Part shown: positions 5,398 to 58,007 of the stretch, piece after piece | Layout of the letters: each line of letters opens with the position of its first letter | Position numbering within the stretch: position 1 is the first letter of the stretch | DNA from: Clostridia bacterium | GTDB taxonomy: Bacteria; Bacillota; DSM-521; Neomoorellales; JACIYF01 | DNA length: 64,000 bases | Assembly (NCBI GenBank): GCA_014360065.1 | Contig: JACIYF010000002.1 | Location: 17,717-81,716, forward strand | Direction of reading: 5' to 3' | The notes under the pieces: model-generated | What the model was told of the DNA's origin: nothing | Databases searched by the model: none | Seen by the model: the letters and a program-made list of their open reading frames with translations, nothing else | Position numbers and translations under genes: made by a program

Positions 5398-6304
5398 GGG
5401 CCATACCCCCCACTTCCAGTTCGGGGCCAAAAATATCGGCCCGAGTCACCGGCCCTAGCCGGCCCTCGCCCACCAGCTGGGTCGCGGTGCGATAGAAAGC
5501 CTCCGGGCTCCCGCTGACATAAAATTCCTGCCGGCAGCAGCATGAAGCATCGGCCAAGGCTTGGTTTTTGGCCAGCAGGGCTTTCACTTCCAGCACCGTA
5601 GCTTCGGCGGGATCAACCAGCTCTACCCCCACCCCCGCTATCTCGGACACCAAGTCGCGTAGGTACGGGTAATGAGTGCAACCGTACACCAGGGTATCAA
5701 TACCTTGTCTCAACAAAGGCTGCAAGTAGCGATATACCGCCTCCCGAGCCCTCAATGAATGGGTTTCCCCGGCTTCGATCAGCGGCACCAGGAGCGGGCA
5801 GGCCTCCATCCATACCTCCGCTTTGGGATTCTCCCGCTTAAGGGCCCGGAGATAGGCCTCGCTCTTAACCGTAGCCTCGGTGGCAATAACTCCAATTTTT
5901 CCCCCTCGGCTGGCCCGCACCGCCGCCTGGGCCCCGGGCTCGACTACCCCTACCACAGGAATTTGGTACTTTCGCTTTAGGCTATCCAGGGCTACCGAAG
6001 ATGTAGTATTGCAAGCATCAATAATAACTTTGCACCCTTTTTCCACTAGAAAAGCAGTGATGGAATCGGCCAAACTAATTAATTCGGCGACCTCCCGCGA
6101 ACCGTAAGGTACGTGGGCAGTATCGCCGAAATAGACGATGGACTCATATGGCAGGTGCTTCCAGAGCTGTTCAACTACTGTAAGGCCCCCTACGCCGGAG
6201 TCAAAGACCCCTATAGGCCGGCACTTTAGCAACGCTCTACCCCTCTTTTCTCGCCTCCCGGCAATTTGCTTCATCATTGTAACAACCACAATCGGCAGTG
6301 TCAA
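5366..6304 (-). CDS. murI: Glutamate racemase.
   Basis: Motifs [18 protein letters not shown] and GCTHYP are present. The exact start is uncertain (alternative M at MMKQIAG). Confidence 0.9.
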
Positions 6305-8178: not shown

Positions 8179-8214
8179 TAGAAAGCCTCCTCGTAAAAAC
8201 ACATGCTCCTAGCT

Positions 8215-8228
8215 GCCAAGCACTCAAC
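8215..8228. repeat. Single copy of the dispersed repeat core (GCCAAGCACTCAAC), in the hisC 5' leader.
   Basis: Direct match to the core GCCCAGCACTCAA with one mismatch. On the minus (mRNA) strand it reads GTTGAGTGCTTGGC, about 37 nt upstream of the hisC ATG. Confidence 0.7.
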
Positions 8229-8376
8229 TTGTTCAACATCAACCAGCAAGGCATTGGCCTATCCGGGTCCGGTTAGACCCCATATCTGTAGTGTCGACTC
8301 GAGTACTGGCTTCGCTCCATAACCCTGCGTGGAGTCGCCACCGGGCCTTGGGCCAAAGCCTGAGCCCAAGGTCCAG

Positions 8377-15000: not shown

Positions 15001-16587
15001 CTAGGAACCGCCACCCTCGCCGCTCTGGCCGCTGCCACCGCCTCCACCGCCTTGGCCGCCGCCACCGGCGCCGCTCTGGCCACCGCCTTGCGCCCCTGGA
15101 GCTGCGCCCGGTCCAGGCGGCTGAGGTTTAATTTGCACGCTCTGGATTTCCCCTTCTACCTCCATGGTGAAGGTCTTGCCATCTTTAGTCTTGATCTGCA
15201 CCAGATTGCGGGGTTTGGGGCCGCCTTGGCCACCGCCAGCCTGGCCACTTTGGCCTTCTCCGCCACCGCCTTGACCGCCCTGGCTGCCGCCTCCAGATCC
15301 GCCGCCGCTTTGGCCGCCGCCTTGGCCACCGCCACCGCCTCCACCGCCTTGGCCGCCTGCTTGACCAGGAGCAGCAGCATGGCGCTGCTGGATGAGGTAG
15401 ACGTTCTCCGGCTGCACCAACCGGGCAGGAACAATCTTGGCAGGCACATCGTAATCTCCTGCCGCCAACTGCTGGTTGTAGCTCCAGTTGGATCGCTGGG
15501 CCAGCTCCCGGGCGGCTTCATAAGCCGTTTGTAAAGCTACATCCGGCTGGGTATCGATCTCAGCTTGTTGGCTTCCCTGGTTGAGGGCGCTGGCCGCATC
15601 TTTGCCCCCACCTACGCCTACGCATATGACCTTGCCGGCCAGGTTATTAGCAACCAGCGCCTGGCTAAGGGAGGAAGCAATCTGATCGTCGGCTGCCAGC
15701 ACTGCACCCAAGGGAAGGTGCTTCTTTAGCAGAGAGAAAACGGTGGCATCGGGGCTCAGGCCGGCCGGGACCTGGTCAGTTATAACCTGTAGCTGGTTAC
15801 CAACTGCCGAGCGTAAACCCGACAGCATCAGGCTGGTCTCCGGCTGAGCGTTACCCCGGCTAATGAAAAGCACCCGAGGGCTGGTCAGGGCTAGGGTTCG
15901 CATGGGGCCGGCCGCTTGGCCAGCTCCGCCTCCGCCCGCGCCCCCACCGCCGGCACCCCCGCCACCAGCTCCGCCGCCCGGGCTACCACCGGCTGCGCCT
16001 CCTCCCTGACCGCCGCCGGCTGCACCTGCACCGCCGCCACCGCCCCCGCCGACGGCTCCCAGCATGGTAGGCGCTGGGGCCTTAGCTTCGCCCCGGCGGA
16101 CTTTCTGCAGAAACTGGCCCTGGAGCTCACCGATGCGTCGGGGATCGGCACCCACATAACCTTGGACTGGTACCCCATCGGGTAAGCGGCCGATGGCCAC
16201 GATGGGCAGCTGCCGATTCAGGGCTTCACGCAGGACGGTGGAGCCCTGCTTAGGATCAACGGGCTCAATGATTAGAGCCTTGATCTCCGATTTTACCAAT
16301 TCGCCCACATCCCGCTCTTGCTGGCTACTATCACCCTTGGCATCTTTTACGATCAGCTGCACCCGGTCCTGCTGCTGCCTAGGCATCAAGGTGCGCTGAA
16401 CCAACTCGGCCGTCCCCCCGACCCCGGCCAAGCTGACCCCAATCTTGGTAGGTGGAGTAATGGGTTTTTGGGAGCCCCGCCGGCTGCAACCGCCCATGCA
16501 GGTACTAACAGCAATGATGATGACGGTAACTGTAACAGCAACAACCGAGATCAGACTAGAACCCCTGGATTTGGCCACGACATCCAC
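15001..16587 (-). CDS. Lipoprotein with a type-1 periplasmic sugar-binding (RbsB/LacI-like) fold, interrupted and extended by poly-Gly low-complexity tracts.
   Basis: 528-aa ORF with TM/lipobox (AVSTCMGGCS) and PBP1-like blocks (IGVSLAG..., ALIIEPVD, PIVAIGR, GYVGADP, VLAADDQIA, VGVGGG). It carries a roughly 48-aa Gly/Ala insert and a 121-aa C-terminal G/Q/S tail. Confidence 0.6.
   Translation of the reverse strand: MDVVAKSRGSSLISVVAVTVTVIIIAVSTCMGGCSRRGSQKPITPPTKIGVSLAGVGGTAELVQRTLMPRQQQDRVQLIVKDAKGDSSQQERDVGELVKSEIKALIIEPVDPKQGSTVLREALNRQLPIVAIGRLPDGVPVQGYVGADPRRIGELQGQFLQKVRRGEAKAPAPTMLGAVGGGGGGGAGAAGGGQGGGAAGGSPGGGAGGGGAGGGGAGGGGAGQAAGPMRTLALTSPRVLFISRGNAQPETSLMLSGLRSAVGNQLQVITDQVPAGLSPDATVFSLLKKHLPLGAVLAADDQIASSLSQALVANNLAGKVICVGVGGGKDAASALNQGSQQAEIDTQPDVALQTAYEAARELAQRSNWSYNQQLAAGDYDVPAKIVPARLVQPENVYLIQQRHAAAPGQAGGQGGGGGGGGQGGGQSGGGSGGGSQGGQGGGGEGQSGQAGGGQGGPKPRNLVQIKTKDGKTFTMEVEGEIQSVQIKPQPPGPGAAPGAQGGGQSGAGGGGQGGGGGGSGQSGEGGGS
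15004..15366 (-). repeat. Low-complexity GGN-codon tract encoding the C-terminal Gly/Gln/Ser tail.
   Basis: Runs of gccacc/gccgcc units are visible in the sequence. The translation is GQAGGQGGGGGGGGQGGGQSGGGSGGGS...GGGGQGGGGGGSGQSGEGGGS, flanking a short beta-like segment (PRNLVQIKTKDGKTFTMEVEGEIQSVQIK). Confidence 0.8.
15910..16053 (-). repeat. Low-complexity tract encoding the internal Gly/Ala insert.
   Basis: Translation is VGGGGGGGAGAAGGGQGGGAAGGSPGGGAGGGGAGGGGAGGGGAGQ, lying between the two PBP lobes. Confidence 0.8.
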
Positions 16588-16743
16588 CCTTTAGCTCATT
16601 CTTCCCGCTCGCTCTTTATTATCCTCAGCTGGGGGATTTTTATGTTTGCGGGCCCCTCCTCCCTCAGGTTTAGGAATTGTCGAAAGTGCGTAGACTATTA
16701 GTGCCCCGCGGGACTGAGCCGCGCAGGATTACGGAGCGGACCT

Positions 16744-16837
16744 AGCACTCAAATCGGGGCTTCCATCGCGAGATCTAGCCTGAATTGGATAGCCAAACCT
16801 TGCCAGTGATGGCGAGCCCGAGATTGAGTGCTGGGCG
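16744..16837. repeat. Inverted doublet of the dispersed repeat core (REPIN-like unit U1).
   Basis: AGCACTCAA at 16744-16752 and TTGAGTGCTGGGCG at 16824-16837 are inverted, with a spacer of about 70 nt. The flank GCGCAGGATTACGGAGCGG (16720-16738) recurs inverted at 42184-42202. Confidence 0.7.
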
Positions 16838-16855
16838 ACCGGAAATAAATGGTTT

Positions 16856-17062
16856 TTGAGGGAGAAAAGGGGAGAGGAAGAGTTGCTGTCCAAGGCCCGC
16901 AAGCAAAAGTCCCTTGAACTCTTCGTTGCCCAAGGGACTGCCTACCAAAAGCTGCTGGAAAAGGTGAACGACCAGGGGCGATACAATCGGGAAATCGCCC
17001 AAGTTCGCACCCAGGTGAAAAAGGCCCAGTATTTCCTGCGGCTGATGGGAAACAGCCGTTAG
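16856..17062 (+). CDS. Small hypothetical protein (59-68 aa, Lys/Gln-rich helical).
   Basis: ORF from the track. The internal TTG (LLSKARKQ) preceded by GGGGAGAGG is an alternative start. It overlaps the queG stop convergently. No recognisable family. Confidence 0.3.
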   Translation: MREKRGEEELLSKARKQKSLELFVAQGTAYQKLLEKVNDQGRYNREIAQVRTQVKKAQYFLRLMGNSR

Positions 17063-22528: not shown

Positions 22529-22679
22529 TTAATTTTCCTCCCAAAGACCAGTATGTTCCAGATCATCTATGCCGGAGCCTTGATCCTCCGCTCCGCCCAA
22601 CCCTCGACCGTGGACCCAATATAACCAGACCAAGCCTTGGCTACCTGGTCCAGGCAAACTCCGCACCGGCGATGCCGAA

Positions 22680-22691
22680 TTGAGCGCTGGG
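22680..22691. repeat. Degenerate single copy of the repeat core (TTGAGCGCTGGG).
   Basis: One mismatch to TTGAGTGCTGGG. The nearby CCTCCGCTCCGCCCAACCCTCG resembles the CCTCCGCTCCGTAATCCTGCG flank at 42181-42201. Confidence 0.45.
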
Positions 22692-26001: not shown

Positions 26002-26127
26002 AGTTTCACCTCCCCCAAACCTACACTTCCACAGGCCGCTGGTTGCCCACTTTACCCAGCCCTCAACCGTGGGCTCAAAATATCCCTCGCTTTTTGCACC
26101 TAATTGCAAAGCTTAGCCGCGCATGGC

Positions 26128-31438: not shown

Positions 31439-31473
31439 ATTGCATCTCCTCCAAGCAACCATTTACTTCTGCC

Positions 31474-31574
31474 CCCAGCACTCAACCCAGTGCTCAACAC
31501 AACCCGACAAGGTGTTGGTTGTTGTCCGGTCCGGCTAGACTCCGCGCCTACAGCCCCGATTTGAGTGCTGGGCC
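31474..31574. repeat. Inverted doublet of the dispersed repeat core (REPIN-like unit U2), in the ftsH-ndk intergenic region.
   Basis: CCCAGCACTCAA at 31474-31485, an adjacent variant CCCAGTGCTCAAC, then TTGAGTGCTGGGCC at 31561-31574. AGCCCCGATTTGAGTGCT equals the reverse complement of 16744-16761. Confidence 0.75.
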
Positions 31575-38437: not shown

Positions 38438-38513
38438 GGTAGCGGTGGTAGGATTCGAACCTACGACACTACGGGTATGAACCGTATGCTCTAACCAGCT
38501 GAGCTACACCGCC
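38438..38513 (-). tRNA. tRNA-Met (anticodon CAU), elongator type.
   Basis: Minus strand reads GGCGGTGTAGCTCAGCTGGTTAGAGCATACGGTTCATACCCGTAGTGTCGTAGGTTCGAATCCTACCACCGCTACC. The cloverleaf folds by hand. It lacks the three G-C pairs of an initiator anticodon stem. Confidence 0.9.
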
Positions 38514-42132: not shown

Positions 42133-42202
42133 ATTAGCTTCCTCCTCCAAAAAACATATATTTCCAGCTGGGGCGCTGTTCCTCCGCTCCGTAATCCTGC
42201 GC

Positions 42203-42215
42203 GCCCAGCACTCAA
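42203..42215. repeat. Single copy of the repeat core (GCCCAGCACTCAA) in the DUF606 gene leader.
   Basis: Exact core, preceded by CCGCTCCGTAATCCTGCGC, which is the inverse of 16720-16738. Confidence 0.75.
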
Positions 42216-42490: not shown

Positions 42491-43522
42491 ATGCGAGCCA
42501 GCCGCCGCCAAATCTTAAGTAATAAGTTGTTGCCCTTAGCCTTATCAGCCATAATGGCCGGGGCTTTCTTTGCCAGCCGCCTTTGCCAACTGGCCTGGGC
42601 TCATTCGCCATCCCCTCCGACTGCCCGCACAACTCAGATCGTTACTTGGGGTAGCCTGGGGGGTTGCGATTGCCGAGGACAGATCCTTAAGCCAACTCCT
42701 GAACCCCACCAAAAGGGGTTGGATGTGGAGGAACTGCAGCAACGTTTGCGTGAGCTAGGTTACTATTTCGGACCCATAAACGGCGTTTACGGGCCGGACA
42801 CTTGGAAGGCGGTACGGCAGTTTAAGGCCAACCTGGGTTTGCCTCCGGATGCAGTGGTAGATGAAGCTACCTGGGAAGCCCTAGGGTACGGGATTGAAAT
42901 CCCGATTTCTAAAGATCCCCTCCCGCCTCCTGAAGAGCCAATCGCCATAACCATCGACACCGACCGCAAGCGCCTGATGGTCTACAGCAAGGGCGATCTA
43001 TACTCAGAGTTCCCGGTGGCAGTTGGCAAGCCGGAAACTCCTACCCCTCGAGGAGAATGGAAGATAATATACAAAGGAAGGGACTGGGGCGGGGGCTTCG
43101 GTACCCGGTGGTTAGGGTTAAACGTCCCCTGGGGCATCTATGGCATCCACGGCACTAATAAGCCCTGGTCCATAGGCACGGCAGCCTCCCACGGCTGCAT
43201 TCGCATGTTCAACCATCACGTGGAACAGCTCTGGGAGTGGGTAAAAGTGGGCACACCGGTAACTATCGTTGGCCCACCCGGTTTTCCCGATTACTGGAGC
43301 TTCCGTACCATTGAACCCAAAGCGGTGGGTCCCGATGTGGTGGAAGTACAGAAGCGGCTCCGCCAGGAAGGGCTCTATTGGTCCTGGATTGATGGCTCCT
43401 ACGGGGATGCGACCATACGGGCGGTGAAGTACTTCCAGGCCCTGCAAGGTTTACCCATCACCGGGGTGGTGGATCGCAAGACCTATCAGGCTTTAGGCCT
43501 AAAGATTATCGAGTGGGATTGA
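42491..43522 (+). CDS. L,D-transpeptidase (YkuD) flanked by two peptidoglycan-binding (PG_binding_1) domains.
   Basis: VEELQQRLRELGYYFGPINGVYG..., catalytic SHGCIRM, and a second PGB repeat VVEVQKRLRQEGLYWSWIDGSYG. Confidence 0.85.
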   Translation: MRASRRQILSNKLLPLALSAIMAGAFFASRLCQLAWAHSPSPPTARTTQIVTWGSLGGCDCRGQILKPTPEPHQKGLDVEELQQRLRELGYYFGPINGVYGPDTWKAVRQFKANLGLPPDAVVDEATWEALGYGIEIPISKDPLPPPEEPIAITIDTDRKRLMVYSKGDLYSEFPVAVGKPETPTPRGEWKIIYKGRDWGGGFGTRWLGLNVPWGIYGIHGTNKPWSIGTAASHGCIRMFNHHVEQLWEWVKVGTPVTIVGPPGFPDYWSFRTIEPKAVGPDVVEVQKRLRQEGLYWSWIDGSYGDATIRAVKYFQALQGLPITGVVDRKTYQALGLKIIEWD

Positions 43523-44567
43523 AACTAATTAGCATCCCATGGAGCAACCCGGTATCGCTGACAATCACCTGGCCGACACCTAGGACCAGAAGCACAGCAT
43601 AAAGGATCATGGCTCCGGCCGTAATGATCTCTGCTCGCGGCGGATCAAAGGCTAGGAGCTCTTGCCGCTCGGCCGGGGCAGCCAGGGCCAGCCTCTCCCA
43701 CCACTCTTTGACCGCACTACGCCTCAGGATATGCCCATGCACCTGGCCGGGATCATAGCTCTTAAGTCCAAGGTCCATAGCCCCCAAGGCAGTTATGGTG
43801 CCACCGATCCCGATCACCGGCCGGCTAGCGGGAGCAATGTCACTGGGGGGCAGCCGCATCCCCGTAGCTACCAAGCCATCTTCCAGCAAGGCCTGGGCCT
43901 CGGCCAGGGTGGTAGCGACTCGGGTGCACCGCACCGACCCCAAAGGGAAACTTAGAGCCTGAAGCTCCGGCCCGCCGCCAGGCTTGCTAGCAGTAATTTC
44001 GGTGCTGCCCCCACCGATATCTATAACCACGGGCGGCAAGGTCAAAGCGGCTTCGTCCCACCCTGCCTGCGCCCACGTTCTTCGCATCCGCTCTTCTGCC
44101 AATACCAAGGAAGCGCCCCGGTACCCCAGCTCACCTTCCCGAGCACCATCGATGATTTCGACCGCAAAACCGGTTTCTTTAGCAATGGTCACCAGAACTT
44201 CTTCCCGATTGGCAGCTTCCCGCAGGGCACTGGTCCCCACCGCCCAAACCCCAGCCGGCCGGTAGCTAGCCACTATCTCTTGGTATTCCTTGAGAGCAGC
44301 AACTGTCCTTTCCAGGGCAGCCAGAGAAATAAAGCTAGGGCCGAGCCCGGCCCGGAAGCCGGGCTCGGCCCTAGCCACTTGCCTTTCTCCCAAACGGGTG
44401 GTGCGGATCTCAGCCCGCAAGCGCCGGATCTGCCAATTGGCACAGCTTCCCTGGTTAAGCCCGGGGCCGGCACTCCCGCGCTGCCTCGGCAACCGCTCCA
44501 CCTCGGCTATCAGCAATCTTACCGTGTTGCTACCCACGTCGATGGCCGCCAAGGTCTGTCCGCCCAT
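43506..44567 (-). CDS. Ppx/GppA family phosphatase.
   Basis: AAIDVGSNTVRLLIAEV...VIDIGGGSTEI motifs. Confidence 0.8.
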   Translation of the reverse strand: MGGQTLAAIDVGSNTVRLLIAEVERLPRQRGSAGPGLNQGSCANWQIRRLRAEIRTTRLGERQVARAEPGFRAGLGPSFISLAALERTVAALKEYQEIVASYRPAGVWAVGTSALREAANREEVLVTIAKETGFAVEIIDGAREGELGYRGASLVLAEERMRRTWAQAGWDEAALTLPPVVIDIGGGSTEITASKPGGGPELQALSFPLGSVRCTRVATTLAEAQALLEDGLVATGMRLPPSDIAPASRPVIGIGGTITALGAMDLGLKSYDPGQVHGHILRRSAVKEWWERLALAAPAERQELLAFDPPRAEIITAGAMILYAVLLVLGVGQVIVSDTGLLHGMLISFNPTR

Positions 44568-46651: not shown

Positions 46652-47095
46652 CTAACCGCTTGCTCCCGCTAGCCCCGGGCGCGACCCCTCCACTGCGGCT
46701 TGGCGAGCCTTCTGGGCCCGAGCCTTAGGGCAATCAAACTCTCGCCTAAACTCCCGGTCTATGGGGCGATAATCAGGCTCAATGCCCTGCTTCAAGGCTA
46801 GCTGGCGCAATACTGCCATTAGGCGCGCAACATTGATGCCGGCTGGACAATTGATGCTGCATTCATGGCATTTCTCGCAATACCAAATGGCGCGGCAGTT
46901 CAAGACGCGACCTTCAAATCCATCCAGTATGCTCTCCACCAATTGCCGGGGAGTAAGATCAAACTCGGCTCCTTTTGCGCATGAACCGCCACATTTAGAG
47001 CATTGTAAGCAAGATCGCAGGTTAATGTGAGCTTCCCGCTCCACTTCCTGTCGGAAGCTCTCCTCAGGGCCAAATGGGTCCAACAACAGGCGCAT
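46652..47095 (-). CDS. Small HdrC-like di-cluster protein, in the 'hyp' position of sHdr-type clusters.
   Basis: 147-aa ORF with CLQCSKCGGSC and CEKCHECSINCP. Confidence 0.6.
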   Translation of the reverse strand: MRLLLDPFGPEESFRQEVEREAHINLRSCLQCSKCGGSCAKGAEFDLTPRQLVESILDGFEGRVLNCRAIWYCEKCHECSINCPAGINVARLMAVLRQLALKQGIEPDYRPIDREFRREFDCPKARAQKARQAAVEGSRPGLAGASG

Positions 47096-47139: not shown

Positions 47140-47152
47140 GCCCAGCACTCCA
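47140..47152. repeat. Single copy of the repeat core (GCCCAGCACTCCA), between hdrA and the 147-aa gene.
   Basis: One mismatch to the core. It lies in a 78-nt intra-cluster gap. Confidence 0.6.
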
Positions 47153-47173: not shown

Positions 47174-48211
47174 TCACTTTTGGCCGGCCAAGTAGCCCAG
47201 CACTTCTGCCGCCGCGCTCCCGGCTTGGGCAACCGCCTGGCTGATTTCCATAGGTGCCAGGCAGGAGCCAGCTAGATAGATCCCTGGCCGAGAAGAGCGA
47301 ACTGGTTGGGTGTTGTAGTCGGCCTCTTGGAAGAACCCGTACTCATCGCAGGCTAAGTCCAGCATCTCCGCCAGCTGGCGGGAGTCGGAGCCTGGCTCCA
47401 TGGCCGAAGCCAAGACTACCAAGTCGGCTTCCAGTTCCACTGGATTGCCAATAAGGGAATCCTCGGCCCGAACCGTCAGTTTACCGCGGTTGGGAACAAC
47501 CTTAGCCACCCGGCCCCGGATGTAGCGAACGCCATATTCTTCGATGGCGGAGCGCACCAGCTCCTCATAGCCTTTACCTAAAGCCCGGATATCGATGTAG
47601 AACACAAAGACTTGCGCTTCGGGAATCTGCTGCTTGATGAGGATAGCCTCCTTGGCACAGTAGGAGCAGCAGATCTTGGAACAATAGCGATAGCCCTTGG
47701 CCCGGTCGCGAGAACCGACACAATGGACCAAGGCCACCACCGGCCTCGAGCCGGCGCCGAGGTATTGGGGCAGCTGCCTCGTTTGCAGAAGCCTTTCCAG
47801 CTCCAAGCTGGTGATAACTGATTTTAGCCGGCCGTAGCCATACTCGGTGTAAGCGGTGGGCTCAAAGTATTTAAACCCGGTGGCCACCACCACTGCACCC
47901 ACCGTTTCTTTGCGGGTGCCGTCTGGACCTTCAAGCACCGCCTCGAAGTTACCAGCCTGGCCGCTAAGCTGTTTGAGCTTAAACCCGGTCAGGATGGCAA
48001 CCTGAGGGTCGGCTTGCACGGATTCAAGTTCTTGCTTCAGCATAGCCTGGGCATCCTGGAGCCGCGGGAAAGTCATGGATATATCCCGCATATGCCCGCC
48101 CAGCTGGGACTCCTTCTCCACCAAGACCACCGGAACCCCACCAGCAGCAATTTTCTGAGCCGCTTTGATGCCGGCGATGCCTCCCCCGATAACTAGAGCC
48201 TTCCTCTCCAT
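47174..48211 (-). CDS. hdrA: Short HdrA-like FAD flavoprotein with one [4Fe-4S] motif.
   Basis: MERKALVIGGGIAGIKAA...LVEKESQLGGHM; HCVGSRD...YCSKICCSYC. About 345 aa from the ATG at 48211 (RBS GGAGGAGG). Confidence 0.75.
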   Translation of the reverse strand: MERKALVIGGGIAGIKAAQKIAAGGVPVVLVEKESQLGGHMRDISMTFPRLQDAQAMLKQELESVQADPQVAILTGFKLKQLSGQAGNFEAVLEGPDGTRKETVGAVVVATGFKYFEPTAYTEYGYGRLKSVITSLELERLLQTRQLPQYLGAGSRPVVALVHCVGSRDRAKGYRYCSKICCSYCAKEAILIKQQIPEAQVFVFYIDIRALGKGYEELVRSAIEEYGVRYIRGRVAKVVPNRGKLTVRAEDSLIGNPVELEADLVVLASAMEPGSDSRQLAEMLDLACDEYGFFQEADYNTQPVRSSRPGIYLAGSCLAPMEISQAVAQAGSAAAEVLGYLAGQK

Positions 48212-48247
48212 GTTCTGTCCTCCTCCAAAAAACATTTACTTCCAGCC

Positions 48248-48260
48248 ACCCAGCACTTAA
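48248..48260. repeat. Single copy of the repeat core (ACCCAGCACTTAA), between hdrB1 and hdrA.
   Basis: Two mismatches to the core. In mRNA sense it is followed by CTGGAAGTAAATGTTTTTTGGAGGAGG. Confidence 0.6.
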
Positions 48261-50265: not shown

Positions 50266-50374
50266 TCTCCTCACCTCCTCGAAACAAACCTTTTACTTCC
50301 ACCACCAGCCCTGGCCCCTACCCTTGCGAACCTCGGTAGGGTTAGGTGGACAGGGACCGGCTTCCGCAAATTGT

Positions 50375-50403
50375 CTTATACTGTTATGAATATATGCTCA
50401 CAA
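50375..50403 (-). promoter_or_regulatory. Putative sigma-A promoter of the hdr-like cluster.
   Basis: Minus strand reads TTGTGA-17 nt-TATAAG in the AT-rich gap. The -35 overlaps one of two direct repeats GCTCACAA(A)TTG (50396-50406 and 50422-50433). Confidence 0.35.
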
Positions 50404-53344: not shown

Positions 53345-53443
53345 GGGGGTGGATGGGTCCTGGTGGGTTCCCTGGACTTCAAATCCAGTGGCGCTCAGGC
53401 CACTCCTGGGCGCGGTGGGTTCGATTCCCACACACTCCCGCCA
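53345..53443 (+). tRNA. selC: tRNA-Sec (selenocysteine, anticodon UCA), 99 nt with encoded CCA.
   Basis: Hand fold: acceptor GGGGGTG(G)/(A)CACTCCC; 6-bp D-stem with a 4-nt loop (GGGTCC-TGGT-GGGTTC); anticodon arm CTGGA-CTTCAAA-TCCAG; 9-bp variable arm GCGCTCAGG-CCACT-CCTGGGCGC; T arm GTGGG-TTCGATT-CCCAC; G73-CCA. Confidence 0.8.
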
Positions 53444-53488: not shown

Positions 53489-54694
53489 CTAGGCTTCTAG
53501 GAAGCGTTTGATTATGGGGGTAACTTTATTGGCTTCCAAAAGGAACGCGTCATGCCCGTATAATGAAGCCAGATTAAAGTAAATTACCGATTTGCCAGCT
53601 TTCTTTATAGCCCTGGCCAGTTGCTTAGTCTGAGCTGGCGGGTACAGCCAATCGGAAGAAAAGGACAGCAAAAGGAATTGGCTTTTTGCTCGGATGCACG
53701 CCCTTACCAGATCCCCTTCGCCCCAACTGGCGGCATCATAGTAGTCCATAGCTTTGGTTATGTAAAGGTAACTATTGGCATCAAAGCGCTCTACAAAGGA
53801 ACGCCCTTGGTGCTCTAAGTATCGCTCCACCTCAAAGTCAAGGTTAAAACCAAAGCTAGGCCCGCCTTTGTGGCAGTATCGCCGTCCAAATTTCCAGCCC
53901 ATGGATGTTTCCGAGAGATAAGTTATGTGTCCCAACATGCGGGCAATGGCCAGCCCCCTCTCAGGACCGCGCTCCCCGTAGTAGTCGCCTCCTCGAAAAC
54001 CGGGGTCATTGATTATGGCCTGCCGGGCCACCTGGTTAAAGGCGATGCCTTGGTCGCTAAGCCGAGCTGAGGAGGCGAGGATTATGACTTTTTGCACCCG
54101 CTCCGGGTACGCCAACGCCCACTCTAAGGCCTGTTGCCCTCCCAGCGAACCCCCCGCCACCGCCCACAGCCTTTCGATCCCCAGGTGGGAGACGAGCCGT
54201 TCCTGGAGGCGCACCCAGTCGCCCACTGTAACCACGGGAAAGCGCAGCCCATACGGCCTGCCGGTAGCTGGGTCGACTGATCCCGGCCCGGTAGTCCCGT
54301 AGCAGCCGCCCAAAACATTGGAGCAAATGACAAAGTATTTCCTGGTGTCAAAAGCCTTCCCCGGCCCCACCATGGAGTCCCACCAGCCCGGCCGGTCCAA
54401 CCGCCAAGGCCGGCCATATTCTCGAGCACTGGCATCCCAGCCAGCGACATGGGCGTCTCCCGACAGGGCATGGAGAATAAGAATGGCATTGCTAGCATCT
54501 TGGTTTAGCTGGCCGTAGGTCTCGTATTCAACTTCCACCGGAGCAAGGCTCCCTCCACCCTCCAGCGGCAAGGGGTTAGTAGCATCGGCCAACTGCACCC
54601 TCTGGGGAAAAGTCCACCCTACCGAGCCAGGTGAATCCGGAACCTCAAATCTCGATGACTTTTTAGCCGGAAGCAAGTTCAAAGGGTCGCTCAT
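53489..54694 (-). CDS. metX: Homoserine O-acetyltransferase.
   Basis: 401-aa alpha/beta hydrolase ([13 protein letters not shown] nucleophile elbow). It overlaps the metY stop by 4 nt. Confidence 0.9.
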
Positions 54695-56010
54695 CGGGTT
54701 CCCTCCTGTTGGCTAGCCGCAATCGCTTGGTCCAGGTCAGCGATGATGTCCTCAACTTCTTCTAGGCCAACCGACAACCTGATATAATCGTCAGTTACTC
54801 CGGCTGATAACCGTTCCTCCTGACTCAACTGCTGGTGGGTAGTGGAAGCCGGGTGGATGATCAGGCTCTTGGCGTCGCCAATATTGGCCAGATGTGAAAT
54901 TAGCTTAACCGATCGGATCAGCTTCACCGCCGCCTGGTACCCGCCCCGGATCCCAAAGCCAATGATGGCCCCTTGACCCCGAGGCAAGTAGCGCTTGGCT
55001 CGCCCGTAGTCGGGATGATTGGGTAAGCCAGGGTAGTTGACCCAGGACACCTCCGGGTGCCCCGCCAACCACTCTGCCACCGCTTGGGCATTCTGACAAT
55101 GGCGCTGCATCCTCAGGGGAAGGGTTTCTATCCCCTGCAGGAAAAGAAAGGCATTGAAGGGTGAAAGGGCAGGGCCCAGATCCCGAAGCAGCTGGACTCT
55201 GGCCTTGACAATATAGGCAGTACTTAGCTTTGCATCGGCGGCCTTGGCCCCAAACAGCTCCCAGTAACAAAGGTTGTGGTAGGATGGGTCGGGCTCGGAT
55301 AGCTCCGGGAACTTGCCGTTATCCCAGTTAAAGCGTCCTGACTCCACTATGGCCCCGCCAATGGAAGTGCCGTGACCATTTATAAACTTGGTTAGCGAGT
55401 GGACGACAACATCGGCACCGTGCTCAAAGGGCCGCAATAAGTAAGGTGTAGTGACGGTGTTGTCCACGATCAAGGGAATCCCGTGCCGGTGGGCAACGGC
55501 AGCAATTGCCTCAAAGTCATCCACGTTATTCTTGGGGTTGCCAATGGACTCCAAGTAAACCAGCCGGGTCCGGCCGTCGATGGCAGCTTCGATATGGCCG
55601 GGGTCAGAGGAGTCCACAAAGCGAACCTCAATACCTAGACGAGCTAGGGTATAGTGAAAAAGATTATAGGTCCCCCCATAGAGGCAGCTGCTGCTGACGA
55701 TGTTTTGGCCCGCTCGAGTTATGTTTAGGACCGCCAAGGTTATGGCCGCCTGCCCCGAGGCTACCGCCAAAGCCGCGCTTCCCCCTTCCAGGGCAGCCAA
55801 TCGCTTTTCCAAGACTTCGGTGGTGGGATTGGCGATGCGGGCATAGACGTAGCCCGGCTGCTCGAGGGCAAATTGGGCTGCTGCTTCCTCAGCGGTATCA
55901 AAGACATAGGAGCTGGTTTGGTAGATGGGCACCGAGCGAGCTTTGGTCAAAGGATCCGGCACCTGCCCGGCATGGATGGATAAGGTTGAAAAGCGTTGGG
56001 CATTAGTCAT
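54691..56010 (-). CDS. metY: O-acetylhomoserine sulfhydrylase (PLP-dependent).
   Basis: 439-aa ORF with a Cys/Met-metabolism PLP fold ([10 protein letters not shown] with the PLP Lys). Confidence 0.9.
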
Positions 56011-56077: not shown

Positions 56078-56205
56078 GCCCCTTCTTATCTTTCCGGCCG
56101 TTGTTATCCAACGCCGGCAGGAGTTGGCACCTTTCAGGCGCTAGCCGCCTGGAGGTTGCCGAGGTTCATCGGGCCTTTCCCTCCCCTACTCTGGATAAGA
56201 AGTGA
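56078..56205 (-). promoter_or_regulatory. SAM-I (S-box) riboswitch controlling metY-metX.
   Basis: Minus strand reads TTCTTATCCAGAGTAGGGGAGGGAAAGGCCCGATGAACCTCGGCAACC...GGTGCCAACTCCTGCCGG...GGAAAGATAAGAAGG. This matches the S-box consensus blocks (CTTATC.AGAG.GG.GGAGGGA..GGCCC.ATGAA.CC.GCAACC / GGTGC.AA.TCC / AGATAAG). Confidence 0.9.
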
Positions 56206-57511: not shown

Positions 57512-57630
57512 TTACTTAGCCCTCCTTTTCCCTAGAAAGAAGCTTCCGAAACGTTCCCTATGCCAGGTCGCTGCCGCCGGCTCCGGATGGCCTCGCCGGC
57601 AATCCGTATGGCTCCCCCTCGCCCTCCGGC

Positions 57631-57729
57631 GCCCAGCACTCAGCTGACTGACCCTAGCTTGGGTTCCACACTATGCGCAGCAAGCTGTTTGTGGGGGCTG
57701 CAGTCTCGCGGTTGGTTGAGTGCTGGGCG
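57631..57729. repeat. Inverted doublet of the dispersed repeat core (REPIN-like unit U3).
   Basis: GCCCAGCACTCAG at 57631-57643 and TTGAGTGCTGGGCG at 57716-57729. Confidence 0.75.
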
Positions 57730-57763
57730 ACCAATTCGACCTCCTGTCTCAAGAGGCCGGCCT

Positions 57764-57860
57764 CCCCAGCACTCAACCACAAAAAATACCATGGCCCATG
57801 GACACTCGCTTTCTGGGCAGGGTAACCCCATTACCGGGTTCATAAGTTGAGTGCTGGGTC
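57764..57860. repeat. Inverted doublet of the dispersed repeat core (REPIN-like unit U4).
   Basis: CCCCAGCACTCAACC at 57764-57778 and TTGAGTGCTGGGTC at 57847-57860. In addition, 57714-57778 forms GGTTGAGTGCTGGG-N37-CCCAGCACTCAACC. Confidence 0.75.
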
Positions 57861-58007
57861 GGGCCCGCCTCCGGACTCGGTTTTGCTAGCGTCTCGCGAG
57901 GCTCGCCCAAAGTCGCCTTGCGCCAGAGCACCCGGCATTTTCATACTTCTTTCGGGTGTACCCCTGGAAACATTCGACGTCCAGCCTGAGATACTGCGCC
58001 TTCGCGA

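Follow-up and report, generated by a model that had tools for sequence, protein, structure and literature searches.

The DNA analyzed here is a 64,000-nucleotide stretch (the window) of contig JACIYF010000002.1 from a Clostridia bacterium of the GTDB order Neomoorellales (assembly GCA_014360065.1, positions 17,717 to 81,716 of the forward strand). At 48212-48260 of the window, on the minus strand, an hdrA-like gene is preceded by a short module in which a 12-nt core is followed by a tail that runs into the Shine-Dalgarno (SD) sequence. An earlier reading made from the letters alone (the sequence-only reading) had proposed that this module is shared by the leaders of five genes, and the five sequences that it quoted are indeed present on the minus strand upstream of the functionally unrelated hdrA-like gene, DUF606 gene, hisC, ndk, and first gene of the hdr cluster (Table 1). 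With moderate confidence, we interpret the module as the gene-side border of a mosaic family of small noncoding insertion sequences and not as a single regulatory element.

Copies of the leader module and its tail

Six copies of the module lie within the 64 kb window and none in about 940 kb of other genomes. The sixth, termed e16+, is on the plus strand; its core and tail together read TTGAGTGCTGGGCGACCGGAAATAAATGGTTTTTGAGGGAG (16824-16864), and the gene downstream is a conserved open reading frame (ORF) of 58-68 amino acids (16856/16886-17062, +). The panD leader is a possible, degenerate seventh copy. Gene identities were confirmed through Pfam or the names of homologs.

The resemblance among the copies is beyond chance. 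The 25-nt tail pattern, allowing up to three mismatches, gave two matches against none in 100 shuffles, and the 12-nt core, allowing up to two, gave 18 against the 7.4 ± 2.6 expected. A profile built from the module copies was run with nhmmer over 1.0 Mb, comprising the window and all fetched loci. It recovered the six training copies, all in the window (E-values of 1e-5 to 0.08), and the corresponding duplicates in same-species contigs, with no additional copy, the next match having E = 1.4. A scan of JGI metagenomes for core plus tail returned only the same ndk locus, and a scan of viral contigs returned 0 matches. All genes of this genome use GGAGG-type SD sequences, often after A/T-rich sequence, as would suit a chance likeness of generic SD contexts or a set of ordinary promoters passed on by descent. 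This explanation is nevertheless extremely improbable, being contradicted by the pattern, shuffle, and profile statistics and by the agreement of two unrelated leaders, those of the hdrA-like and DUF606 genes, at 27 of 29 tail positions (93%). Vertical inheritance is further contradicted by outgroups that lack the sequence and by orthologous copies that are no closer to each other than nonorthologous ones.

The tail is a segment of about 25 nt with the pattern RGAAG-N4-TG-T-rich that extends to the SD (GGAGG). Over the window and a sister species, in which five tails of a variant of its own stand upstream of ndk, Fer4_9, hdrA, DUF606, and hisC, the consensus becomes RGAAG-N4-(Y)TGTTTWY-GGAGG. 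All 11 tails (six in the window and five in the sister species) point toward the adjoining gene, and every tail with downstream sequence adjoins a start codon, mostly at 6-9 nt and at about 20 nt in e16+; the DUF606 tail of the sister species reaches the end of its contig. In 860 kb of other genomes that carry the repeat unit described below, the tail never follows the core, and it is specific to this Moorellales-like lineage. The tails of hdrA, ndk, and hisC also contain an in-frame ATG or GTG (48235, 31462, and 8202, minus strand) exactly 24 nt 5' of the start codons served by the SD, so that longest-ORF calling begins these three genes eight codons too early. A mini-ORF starting at the GTG in the core (MLGGWK*) was rejected, as it is in frame in two copies only and has no SD.

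Among contigs of the same species (L001, L127, L130, and L131; 94-100% nucleotide identity), three independent ones break at the modules. Two of them, L001 and L127, start inside the hdrA core (window 48256), L127 ends near 42187, and the third, L130, begins with the left arm of the ndk unit. Such breaks in independent short-read assemblies are expected for multicopy repeats longer than the assembly k-mer.

Table 1. Module copies, repeat units, and other features of the window, followed by units within RNA genes of other taxa. Numbers are window positions unless a contig is named.
Feature	Position	Strand	Composition and remarks
Leader of hdrA-like gene (HdrA-family flavoprotein)	48212-48260	-	Solitary core TTAAGTGCTGGG 48249-48260, one mismatch; tail GGAAGTAAATGTTTTTTGGAGGAGG 48219-48243, ending in SD; ATG 48209-48211
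Leader of DMT_YdcZ gene (PF04657, former DUF606)	42141-42215	-	Core 42204-42215; 34-nt insert 42170-42203; tail 42141-42169
Leader of hisC (histidinol-phosphate aminotransferase)	8186-8309	-	Degenerate 94-bp inverted-repeat unit (pair 8216-8309): left arm CCAGTACTCGAG 8298-8309, right arm (core) 8216-8227; tail 8186-8210
Leader of ndk	31446-31572	-	99-bp inverted-repeat unit 31474-31572; core 31474-31485; tandem degenerate 12-mer 31486-31497; tail 31446-31470
Leader of first hdr-cluster gene (81-aa protein)	50274-50360	-	Different hairpin 50305-50360, then tail GGAAGTAAAAGGTTTGTTTCGAGGAGG 50274-50300
e16+ (sixth copy)	16741-16864	+	95-bp inverted-repeat unit 16741-16835; core 16824-16835; tail GGAAATAAATGGTTTTTGAGGGAG 16841-16864
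Leader of panD (possible degenerate copy)	26020-26066	-	Core variant TTGAGGGCTGGG 26055-26066; tail-like GGAAGTGTAGGTTTGGGGGAGG
Two tandem inverted-repeat units without tail	57632-57858		57632-57727 and 57765-57858
Solitary core variant	47141-47152	-	TGGAGTGCTGGG; upstream of Fer4_17 gene (46652-47095)
Degenerate inverted-repeat unit	22596-22691	+	CCCAACCCTCGA ... TTGAGCGCTGGG; upstream of coaX
SAM-I riboswitch	56083-56201	-	Upstream of gene pair at 54691-56010
Selenocysteine tRNA	53345-53439	+	
tRNA-Met	38440-38513	-	
Gene for 528-aa protein	15001-16587	-	Periplasmic-binding domain; long Gly-rich tracts from GGC-rich repeats of 9-nt period; 66-nt indel versus sister species; leader of about 150 nt (16590-16700) highly conserved in both species
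Hairpin of 20 bp, G-T pairs allowed (15 G-C)	44333-44376	-	Followed by T-rich stretch; just inside 5' end of Ppx-GppA ORF (43506-44567), near an indel versus sister species
RNase P RNA, P12	L039 1674-1768; L064 2202-2310; L011		CCCCGCAC variant in L011
RNase P RNA, P3	L109; L011		
RNase P RNA, unit coordinates	L011 1506-1604 and 1690-1791; L109 838-938 and 1266-1365		
RNase P RNA, further cases	L094 3001-3110; L047 1688-1962		
23S rRNA	L020 5379-5484; L046 1041-1138		Near 3' end (L020); 5' domain (L046)
16S rRNA of Pelotomaculum propionicicum, two positions	L088 79-164 and 1503-1600		

The core as one arm of a 12-bp inverted repeat

The core TTGAGTGCTGGG is one arm of a 12-bp inverted repeat and seldom occurs singly. 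Four inverted pairs in the window, namely the ndk and e16+ units and the two tandem units without a tail, have the form CCCAGCACTCAA-N70-75-TTGAGTGCTGGG and span 94-99 bp; the partner arm of the hisC core has decayed, and the interiors of the window units are poorly conserved. An exact-match scan restricted to one genome per species placed the inverted repeat at no fewer than 120 loci. Among the matches listed are several Bacillota metagenome-assembled genomes (MAGs), Desulforudis (including a complete genome), Ammonifex, Moorella, and Thermacetogeniaceae, as well as the isolates Pelotomaculum propionicicum and Sporotomaculum syntrophicum. Also among them are contigs labeled Thermotogae, Bipolaricaulota, KSB1, Acidobacteriota, and others, these labels being unverified MAG-bin assignments.

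We examined 159 distinct units, which are 80-124 bp long and mostly 94-102 bp. Their arms are complementary at 96-100% across exactly 12 positions, at 67% and 49% at the next two positions inward, and at background level outside, and arm variants at positions 0, 3, and 11 are frequently matched on both arms. The interiors are not unusually structured (mean folding z = -0.5, with few symmetric pairs), and units nest within one another in the order L-L-R-R. The inverted repeat stays invariant over distant lineages while the interiors drift, which implies a conserved sequence-specific factor. Pairs of the inverted repeat 200-3500 bp apart, the size of an insertion sequence, were absent from about 0.9 Mb of loci. 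An invertible promoter (inverton) was rejected as an explanation, given that the interiors in MAG044 hold one orientation relative to their flanks and that units also occur inside rRNA genes. Rfam gave no match at the modules, either at the gathering threshold over the whole window or at E ≤ 1 over 41.9-50.7 kb and loci rich in units. Keyword literature searches found no element of this kind and no paper naming this inverted repeat, and a search with the sequence string returned only unrelated eukaryotic primers.

At most other sites, the core occurs without the tail. The 3' flanks of the core fall into a few recurrent families that differ from genome to genome, such as TGGTTCCGGCTTGTCCGGGTTAGGAGG in MAG163, where ATG sometimes comes next, and CAGGCGAAGTTTTTCAACAG or TCGTTTTTGAACAG in Desulforudis. 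Further small repeats occur here. One family, GAAGTATGAAAATGCCGGG, is found at window 57931-57949 (minus strand) and in the sister species contigs L126 (about 3925) and L122 (about 3340). Another sequence, GGGGGAGCCATRCGSATTGCCGGC (window 57595-57618; L122 about 11681), recurs beside cores in either orientation, and CGCAGGATTACGGAGCGGA occupies 16720-16740 and, inverted, 42183-42203. The mosaic holds more modules than the core unit and the tail.

Units of other taxa, two isolates among them, differ from the window copies in that they are also located within genes for structured RNAs; there, the 12-bp helix lengthens a helix of RNase P RNA, 16S rRNA, or 23S rRNA or takes its place (Table 1). 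These are extra hairpins at helices that tolerate extension, and in RNase P RNA, the units replace G+C-rich hairpin stems starting CCC...GGG. Insertions, intervening sequences, and expansion segments are known from the rRNAs of Desulfotomaculum, Pelotomaculum, and Thermoanaerobacter, which are the same taxa and the same phenomenon as the units here. One paper (PMC4817712) calls oversized 16S rRNA genes "characteristic of some Desulfotomaculum", and another (PMC7812874) deals with expanded 5S rRNAs in Clostridiales and Thermoanaerobacterales; the available portions of these two papers describe no shared 12-bp inverted repeat and no matching unit in intergenic leaders. The units may account for the oversized rRNA genes of Desulfotomaculum-type bacteria. 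A separate observation is the 5S rRNA gene of S. syntrophicum (L020 5726-5915), which at 190 nt, compared with the 120-nt model, carries an insertion of about 70 nt without the 12-bp inverted repeat. It fits the expanded 5S rRNAs of PMC7812874.

In predicted folds, the core pairs with its partner arm and closes a large stem-loop at ndk, e16+, and hisC, the first hdr gene has a separate hairpin, and most of the tail and SD is unpaired. An intrinsic terminator at the modules was rejected, the T-rich stretch lying 14-21 nt from the stem and a terminator scan listing none there. Sequestration of the SD was likewise rejected, as the leaders contain no CCUCC and the SD is predicted to be free.

Orthologous leaders in a sister species and in outgroups

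The FtsH protein puts the organism near Calderihabitans and Moorellaceae (79% identity). We compared the window leaders with sister species contigs (L122, L126, and L133; 76-79% nucleotide identity) and with two outgroups, Calderihabitans (L123) and a Thermincolia MAG (L128), as the sequence-only reading had suggested beforehand. The comparison revealed presence/absence differences of a kind that contradicts an ordinary, vertically inherited promoter. Three junctions that are short in the outgroups hold 70-240 nt of repeat DNA in this lineage. In Calderihabitans, ftsH and ndk are separated by 29 nt, whereas the window has a terminator, a unit, and a tail, and the sister species has a rearranged core and a diverged tail. 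The hdrB-hdrA junction is 17 nt in Thermincolia. At this site, the window has core and tail and the sister species has other inserts and a tail-like stretch, only the SD-proximal GGAGGACAnAnCATG aligning between the two orthologous leaders. Finally, the panC-panD junction is 2 nt in Calderihabitans, whereas it is 108 nt in the window, with the core variant and the tail-like stretch.

Four further leaders differ between the window and the sister species. At the first hdr gene, a block of about 85 nt (the different hairpin and the tail) is absent from the sister species; it is flanked on one side by a conserved Rex-like box with its -10 element and on the other by a purine run that aligns with the SD of the sister species. 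At e16+, the sister species lacks a block of about 150 nt (flank, unit, and tail), which ends at a purine run (GAGGGAG vs GGGGGAG) and is located 3' of a conserved TATTAGT/TATTAAT. Because both blocks lie 3' of conserved promoter or operator sequence, they would fall within the 5' untranslated region (UTR). The DUF606 leader of the sister species has the tail GCCCCAGCTGGAAGTGAGCTGTTTACGAGGGAG and no core, whereas the window has the tail and about 135 extra nt with the core directly 5' of the tail. In hisC, the sister species has a tail variant without the unit, whereas the window has both the 94-nt unit and the tail, in a layout identical in the same-species contig L131. The reverse case also occurs: the sister species carries a unit 3' of its DUF2520 gene, and the window has a 27-nt spacer at that place. 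The Rex-like operator itself (TTGTGAGCATATATTCATAA followed by TATAAG, window 50384-50403, minus strand) stands upstream of the hdr-like cluster and is kept in the sister species (L126, about 1806-1825). Its conservation suggests putative redox (NADH/NAD+) control of the cluster.

These comparisons modify the proposal that the module is a single mobile element delivering a ready-made ribosome-binding site or promoter. It consists of two separable parts, as the tail occurs without the core at DUF606 and hisC of the sister species and the core occurs without the tail at most other sites. An inserted repeat is supported by self-nesting, by the presence/absence differences, and by the tight outgroup junctions. 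However, delivery of a ribosome-binding site is not, since at the two cleanest indels, the SD purine run aligns with the sister's own SD, and neither is a sigma-70 promoter.

The main rival is an outward-facing hybrid promoter, with TTGAGT of the arm as the -35 box, TAAATG of the tail as the -10 box, and a very short leader starting at the SD. Outward -35 boxes in transposon ends are known to form hybrid promoters, as in insertion sequence (IS) elements and Correia elements. The spacing TTGAGT-N16-TAAATG/CATGTG recurs at hdrA, e16+, and hisC, and ndk, which lies 3' of the ftsH terminator, requires some promoter. However, TAAATG lacks the conserved T at position 6, and the spacing, 16 nt at those three copies, drops to 14 nt at ndk and reaches 51 nt at DUF606; the 14-16 nt range reported in the sequence-only reading, which took it to argue against a simple -35/-10 promoter, is correct. 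A sigma-70 scan flags none of the modules, although canonical TTGACA/TATAAT promoters occur elsewhere in the window. The tails of the sister species have neither box, the tail of the first hdr gene follows a different hairpin without TTGAGT, the first hdr and e16+ blocks lie 3' of conserved promoters, and the hdrA and panD copies are intercistronic. Nor do relatives keep the same promoter, the outgroup junctions measuring only 2-29 nt. We therefore regard a hybrid promoter as unlikely. By eye, there was no match to sigma-54, sigma-H, or sporulation-sigma consensus sequences (no GC of the -12 element and no GAAT at the right distance). A leaderless mRNA beginning at the ATG of TAAATG was also rejected, as a suitably spaced -10 is lacking and neither the copy at the first hdr gene nor any tail of the sister species has the ATG.

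Tail identity averages 0.73 within the window (0.93 for hdrA vs DUF606). Between the species, it is 0.57-0.67 for orthologous pairs and 0.60 for nonorthologous ones. Orthologous tails being no closer than nonorthologous ones, the tails have been copied or homogenized within each genome and not simply inherited. Substitutions in the tail are present even between near-identical strains. In the sister species, a tail-bearing insert 5' of Fer4_9 (L126, about 5600-5674) is read through by the preceding Fer4_17 ORF (165 aa vs 147 aa in the window), repeat DNA having turned into a C-terminal extension.

A common translational operator would be a different way to account for the greater likeness of paralogous than orthologous tails, which would then reflect coevolution with a factor. 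In this explanation, a CsrA-like protein or a small RNA binds a bipartite RGAAG ... GGAGG site and coregulates the genes, and the two purine boxes about 14-17 nt apart, one of them the SD, as well as the gene-directed position of all copies beside a start codon, speak for it. We consider it improbable. The upstream GGA, on which the earlier CsrA-type proposal leaned, is missing at ndk (AGAAG) and in two copies of the sister species (AGAAC and AGAAG), and the upstream box is not in a hairpin loop, the tail being predicted unpaired. Moreover, the genes (hdr, ndk, hisC, exporter, and panD) are unrelated in function, the tail diverges rapidly between species and varies between strains, and no gene for a regulator was identified. 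Nothing points to a specific controlling factor.

The tail could instead be an older native leader motif beside which hairpins insert, for example at a CCAGCTGG/GCTGG boundary resembling their own ends, so that no cassette exists. This target-site effect is in keeping with DUF606 and hisC, where both species have the tail and only the window lineage has the inverted-repeat unit, with the few recurrent flank families that follow the core in other genomes, and with the replacement of CCC...GGG stems in RNase P RNA. Against it, the indel blocks of the first hdr gene and e16+ include the tail itself, the near-identity of the hdrA and DUF606 tails requires recent copying, and most core ends have no tail. 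On balance, the explanation is unlikely.

Probable mosaic insertion in leaders and its relation to known repeats

In the interpretation that we favor, module A is a hairpin unit, typically of 80-120 bp, bounded by the invariant 12-bp inverted repeat and spread over many anaerobic and thermophilic lineages, and module B is the lineage-specific tail of about 25 nt up to the SD. Immediately 5' of SD sequences, both would have been inserted, duplicated, or homogenized into transcribed 5' leaders and into operon junctions that used to be tight. The position of the two cleanest indels 3' of a conserved promoter or operator, together with the three intercistronic copies, indicates that the modules are most likely transcribed. 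Transcribed module A would form a stem-loop closed by the 12-bp helix, and module B an unpaired, U-rich spacer that leaves the SD free, so that the downstream gene would be preceded by a hairpin, a U-rich single-stranded spacer, and an exposed SD. The likely outcome would be generic, with neighboring cistrons uncoupled and mRNA decay or processing and ribosome loading altered. The hairpin could act as a structured barrier or processing site, and ribosome loading might be improved. An RNA processing or stabilizing element, another suggestion of the sequence-only reading, is compatible with this predicted anatomy in 5' UTRs and intercistronic spacers.

Several points weigh against the interpretation. 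The analysis covered only the 64 kb window for this species and about 37 kb for its sister. The polarity of insertion or deletion is backed by outgroups only for ndk, hdrA, and panD, and the other four indels rest on two species. No mobilizing enzyme was found for the units, and flanking direct repeats of 1-9 nt were no more common than in shuffled pairings (158 units), indicating no target-site duplication. The ndk copy, behind a terminator, would depend on read-through or on a promoter within the inserted DNA. The interpretation does not by itself account for the exact end of the tail at the SD, which could reflect targeting, selection, or gene conversion. Finally, although the repeat family, its composite make-up, the indel polymorphisms, the outgroup junctions, and the predicted folds are direct results, we infer transcription through the modules, the UTR location and any RNA-level effect, as well as the mechanism of mobility and any effect on expression, from sequence.

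A more tentative possibility, which we hold clearly less probable, is that the inverted-repeat unit is an undescribed mobile hairpin element that crosses phyla, is moved by an enzyme, and resides in helix tips of RNase P RNA and rRNA and in mRNA leaders, joined here to the tail as a portable 5' leader cassette. A sequence-specific enzyme would keep CCCAGCACTCAA invariant while the interiors drift, and in this lineage, the cassette would land at SD sequences, break tight operon junctions, and stay uniform within each genome.

Taken as mosaic insertion DNA, the module can be compared with several known families. Correia elements (CREE/NEMIS) of Neisseria are noncoding, multicopy sequences of about 100-155 bp, bounded by inverted repeats and located near gene starts, where they are cotranscribed as hairpins and alter the promoter activity and mRNA processing of their neighbors. 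However, Correia elements are restricted to a single genus and carry inverted repeats of 26 bp, a TA target duplication, and an IHF site, whereas the units here have a 12-bp inverted repeat, no target duplication, and a variable interior, in genomes labeled as many phyla. BIME/REP of enterobacteria and BOX/RUP of pneumococcus are likewise mosaic, with a short conserved unit in alternating orientation, limited flanking motifs, and tandem arrays. They share the intergenic and intercistronic sites as well and affect mRNA stability. In contrast to the palindromic REP unit and the REPIN, which forms one long hairpin, the 12-mer here forms no palindrome and the interiors show no special self-complementarity; no search for a RAYT gene was made. 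Rickettsia palindromic elements (RPEs) are similar as small repeats in functional genes, including RNA genes where an extra hairpin is tolerated, but they are genus specific and often in frame in proteins, whereas the units here are in RNase P RNA, 16S and 23S rRNA, and leaders.

The integron attC site is also comparable, being about 60-140 bp, variable in length, and conserved only at its inverted ends, and ACTCAAC/GTTGAGT fits RYYYAAC/GTTRRRY. However, only about 36% of unit copies have C/G at position 13, the conserved block extends 5 nt further out, and the copies are dispersed among housekeeping leaders and RNA genes and do not form cassette arrays beside intI. The units resemble miniature inverted-repeat transposable elements (MITEs) in having terminal inverted repeats (12 bp), a small size (80-120 bp), no ORF, and many copies (at least 120 loci), yet a classical MITE was rejected for want of a target-site duplication. 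The module is a small interspersed mosaic repeat in leaders, with Correia, BIME/REP, BOX, and RPE sequences as its nearest functional analogs; we assign it to none of the known analogs because it has no target duplication, a nonpalindromic 12-mer, no long hairpin, and no cassette arrays.

If the interpretation holds, about one-tenth of the gene starts in the window have leaders made of repeat DNA, and the ftsH-ndk, hdrB-hdrA, and panC-panD junctions, tight in relatives, have been opened by it. This would be a tangible example of how selfish or mosaic repeats reshape translation-initiation regions. On the practical side, start-codon calling is misled by the ATG or GTG within the tail, and assemblies break at the repeat. 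What may matter more, as a testable lead on how such insertions arise, is that a single short inverted repeat connects an interspersed repeat family with the rRNA and RNase P RNA gene insertions of several anaerobic lineages.

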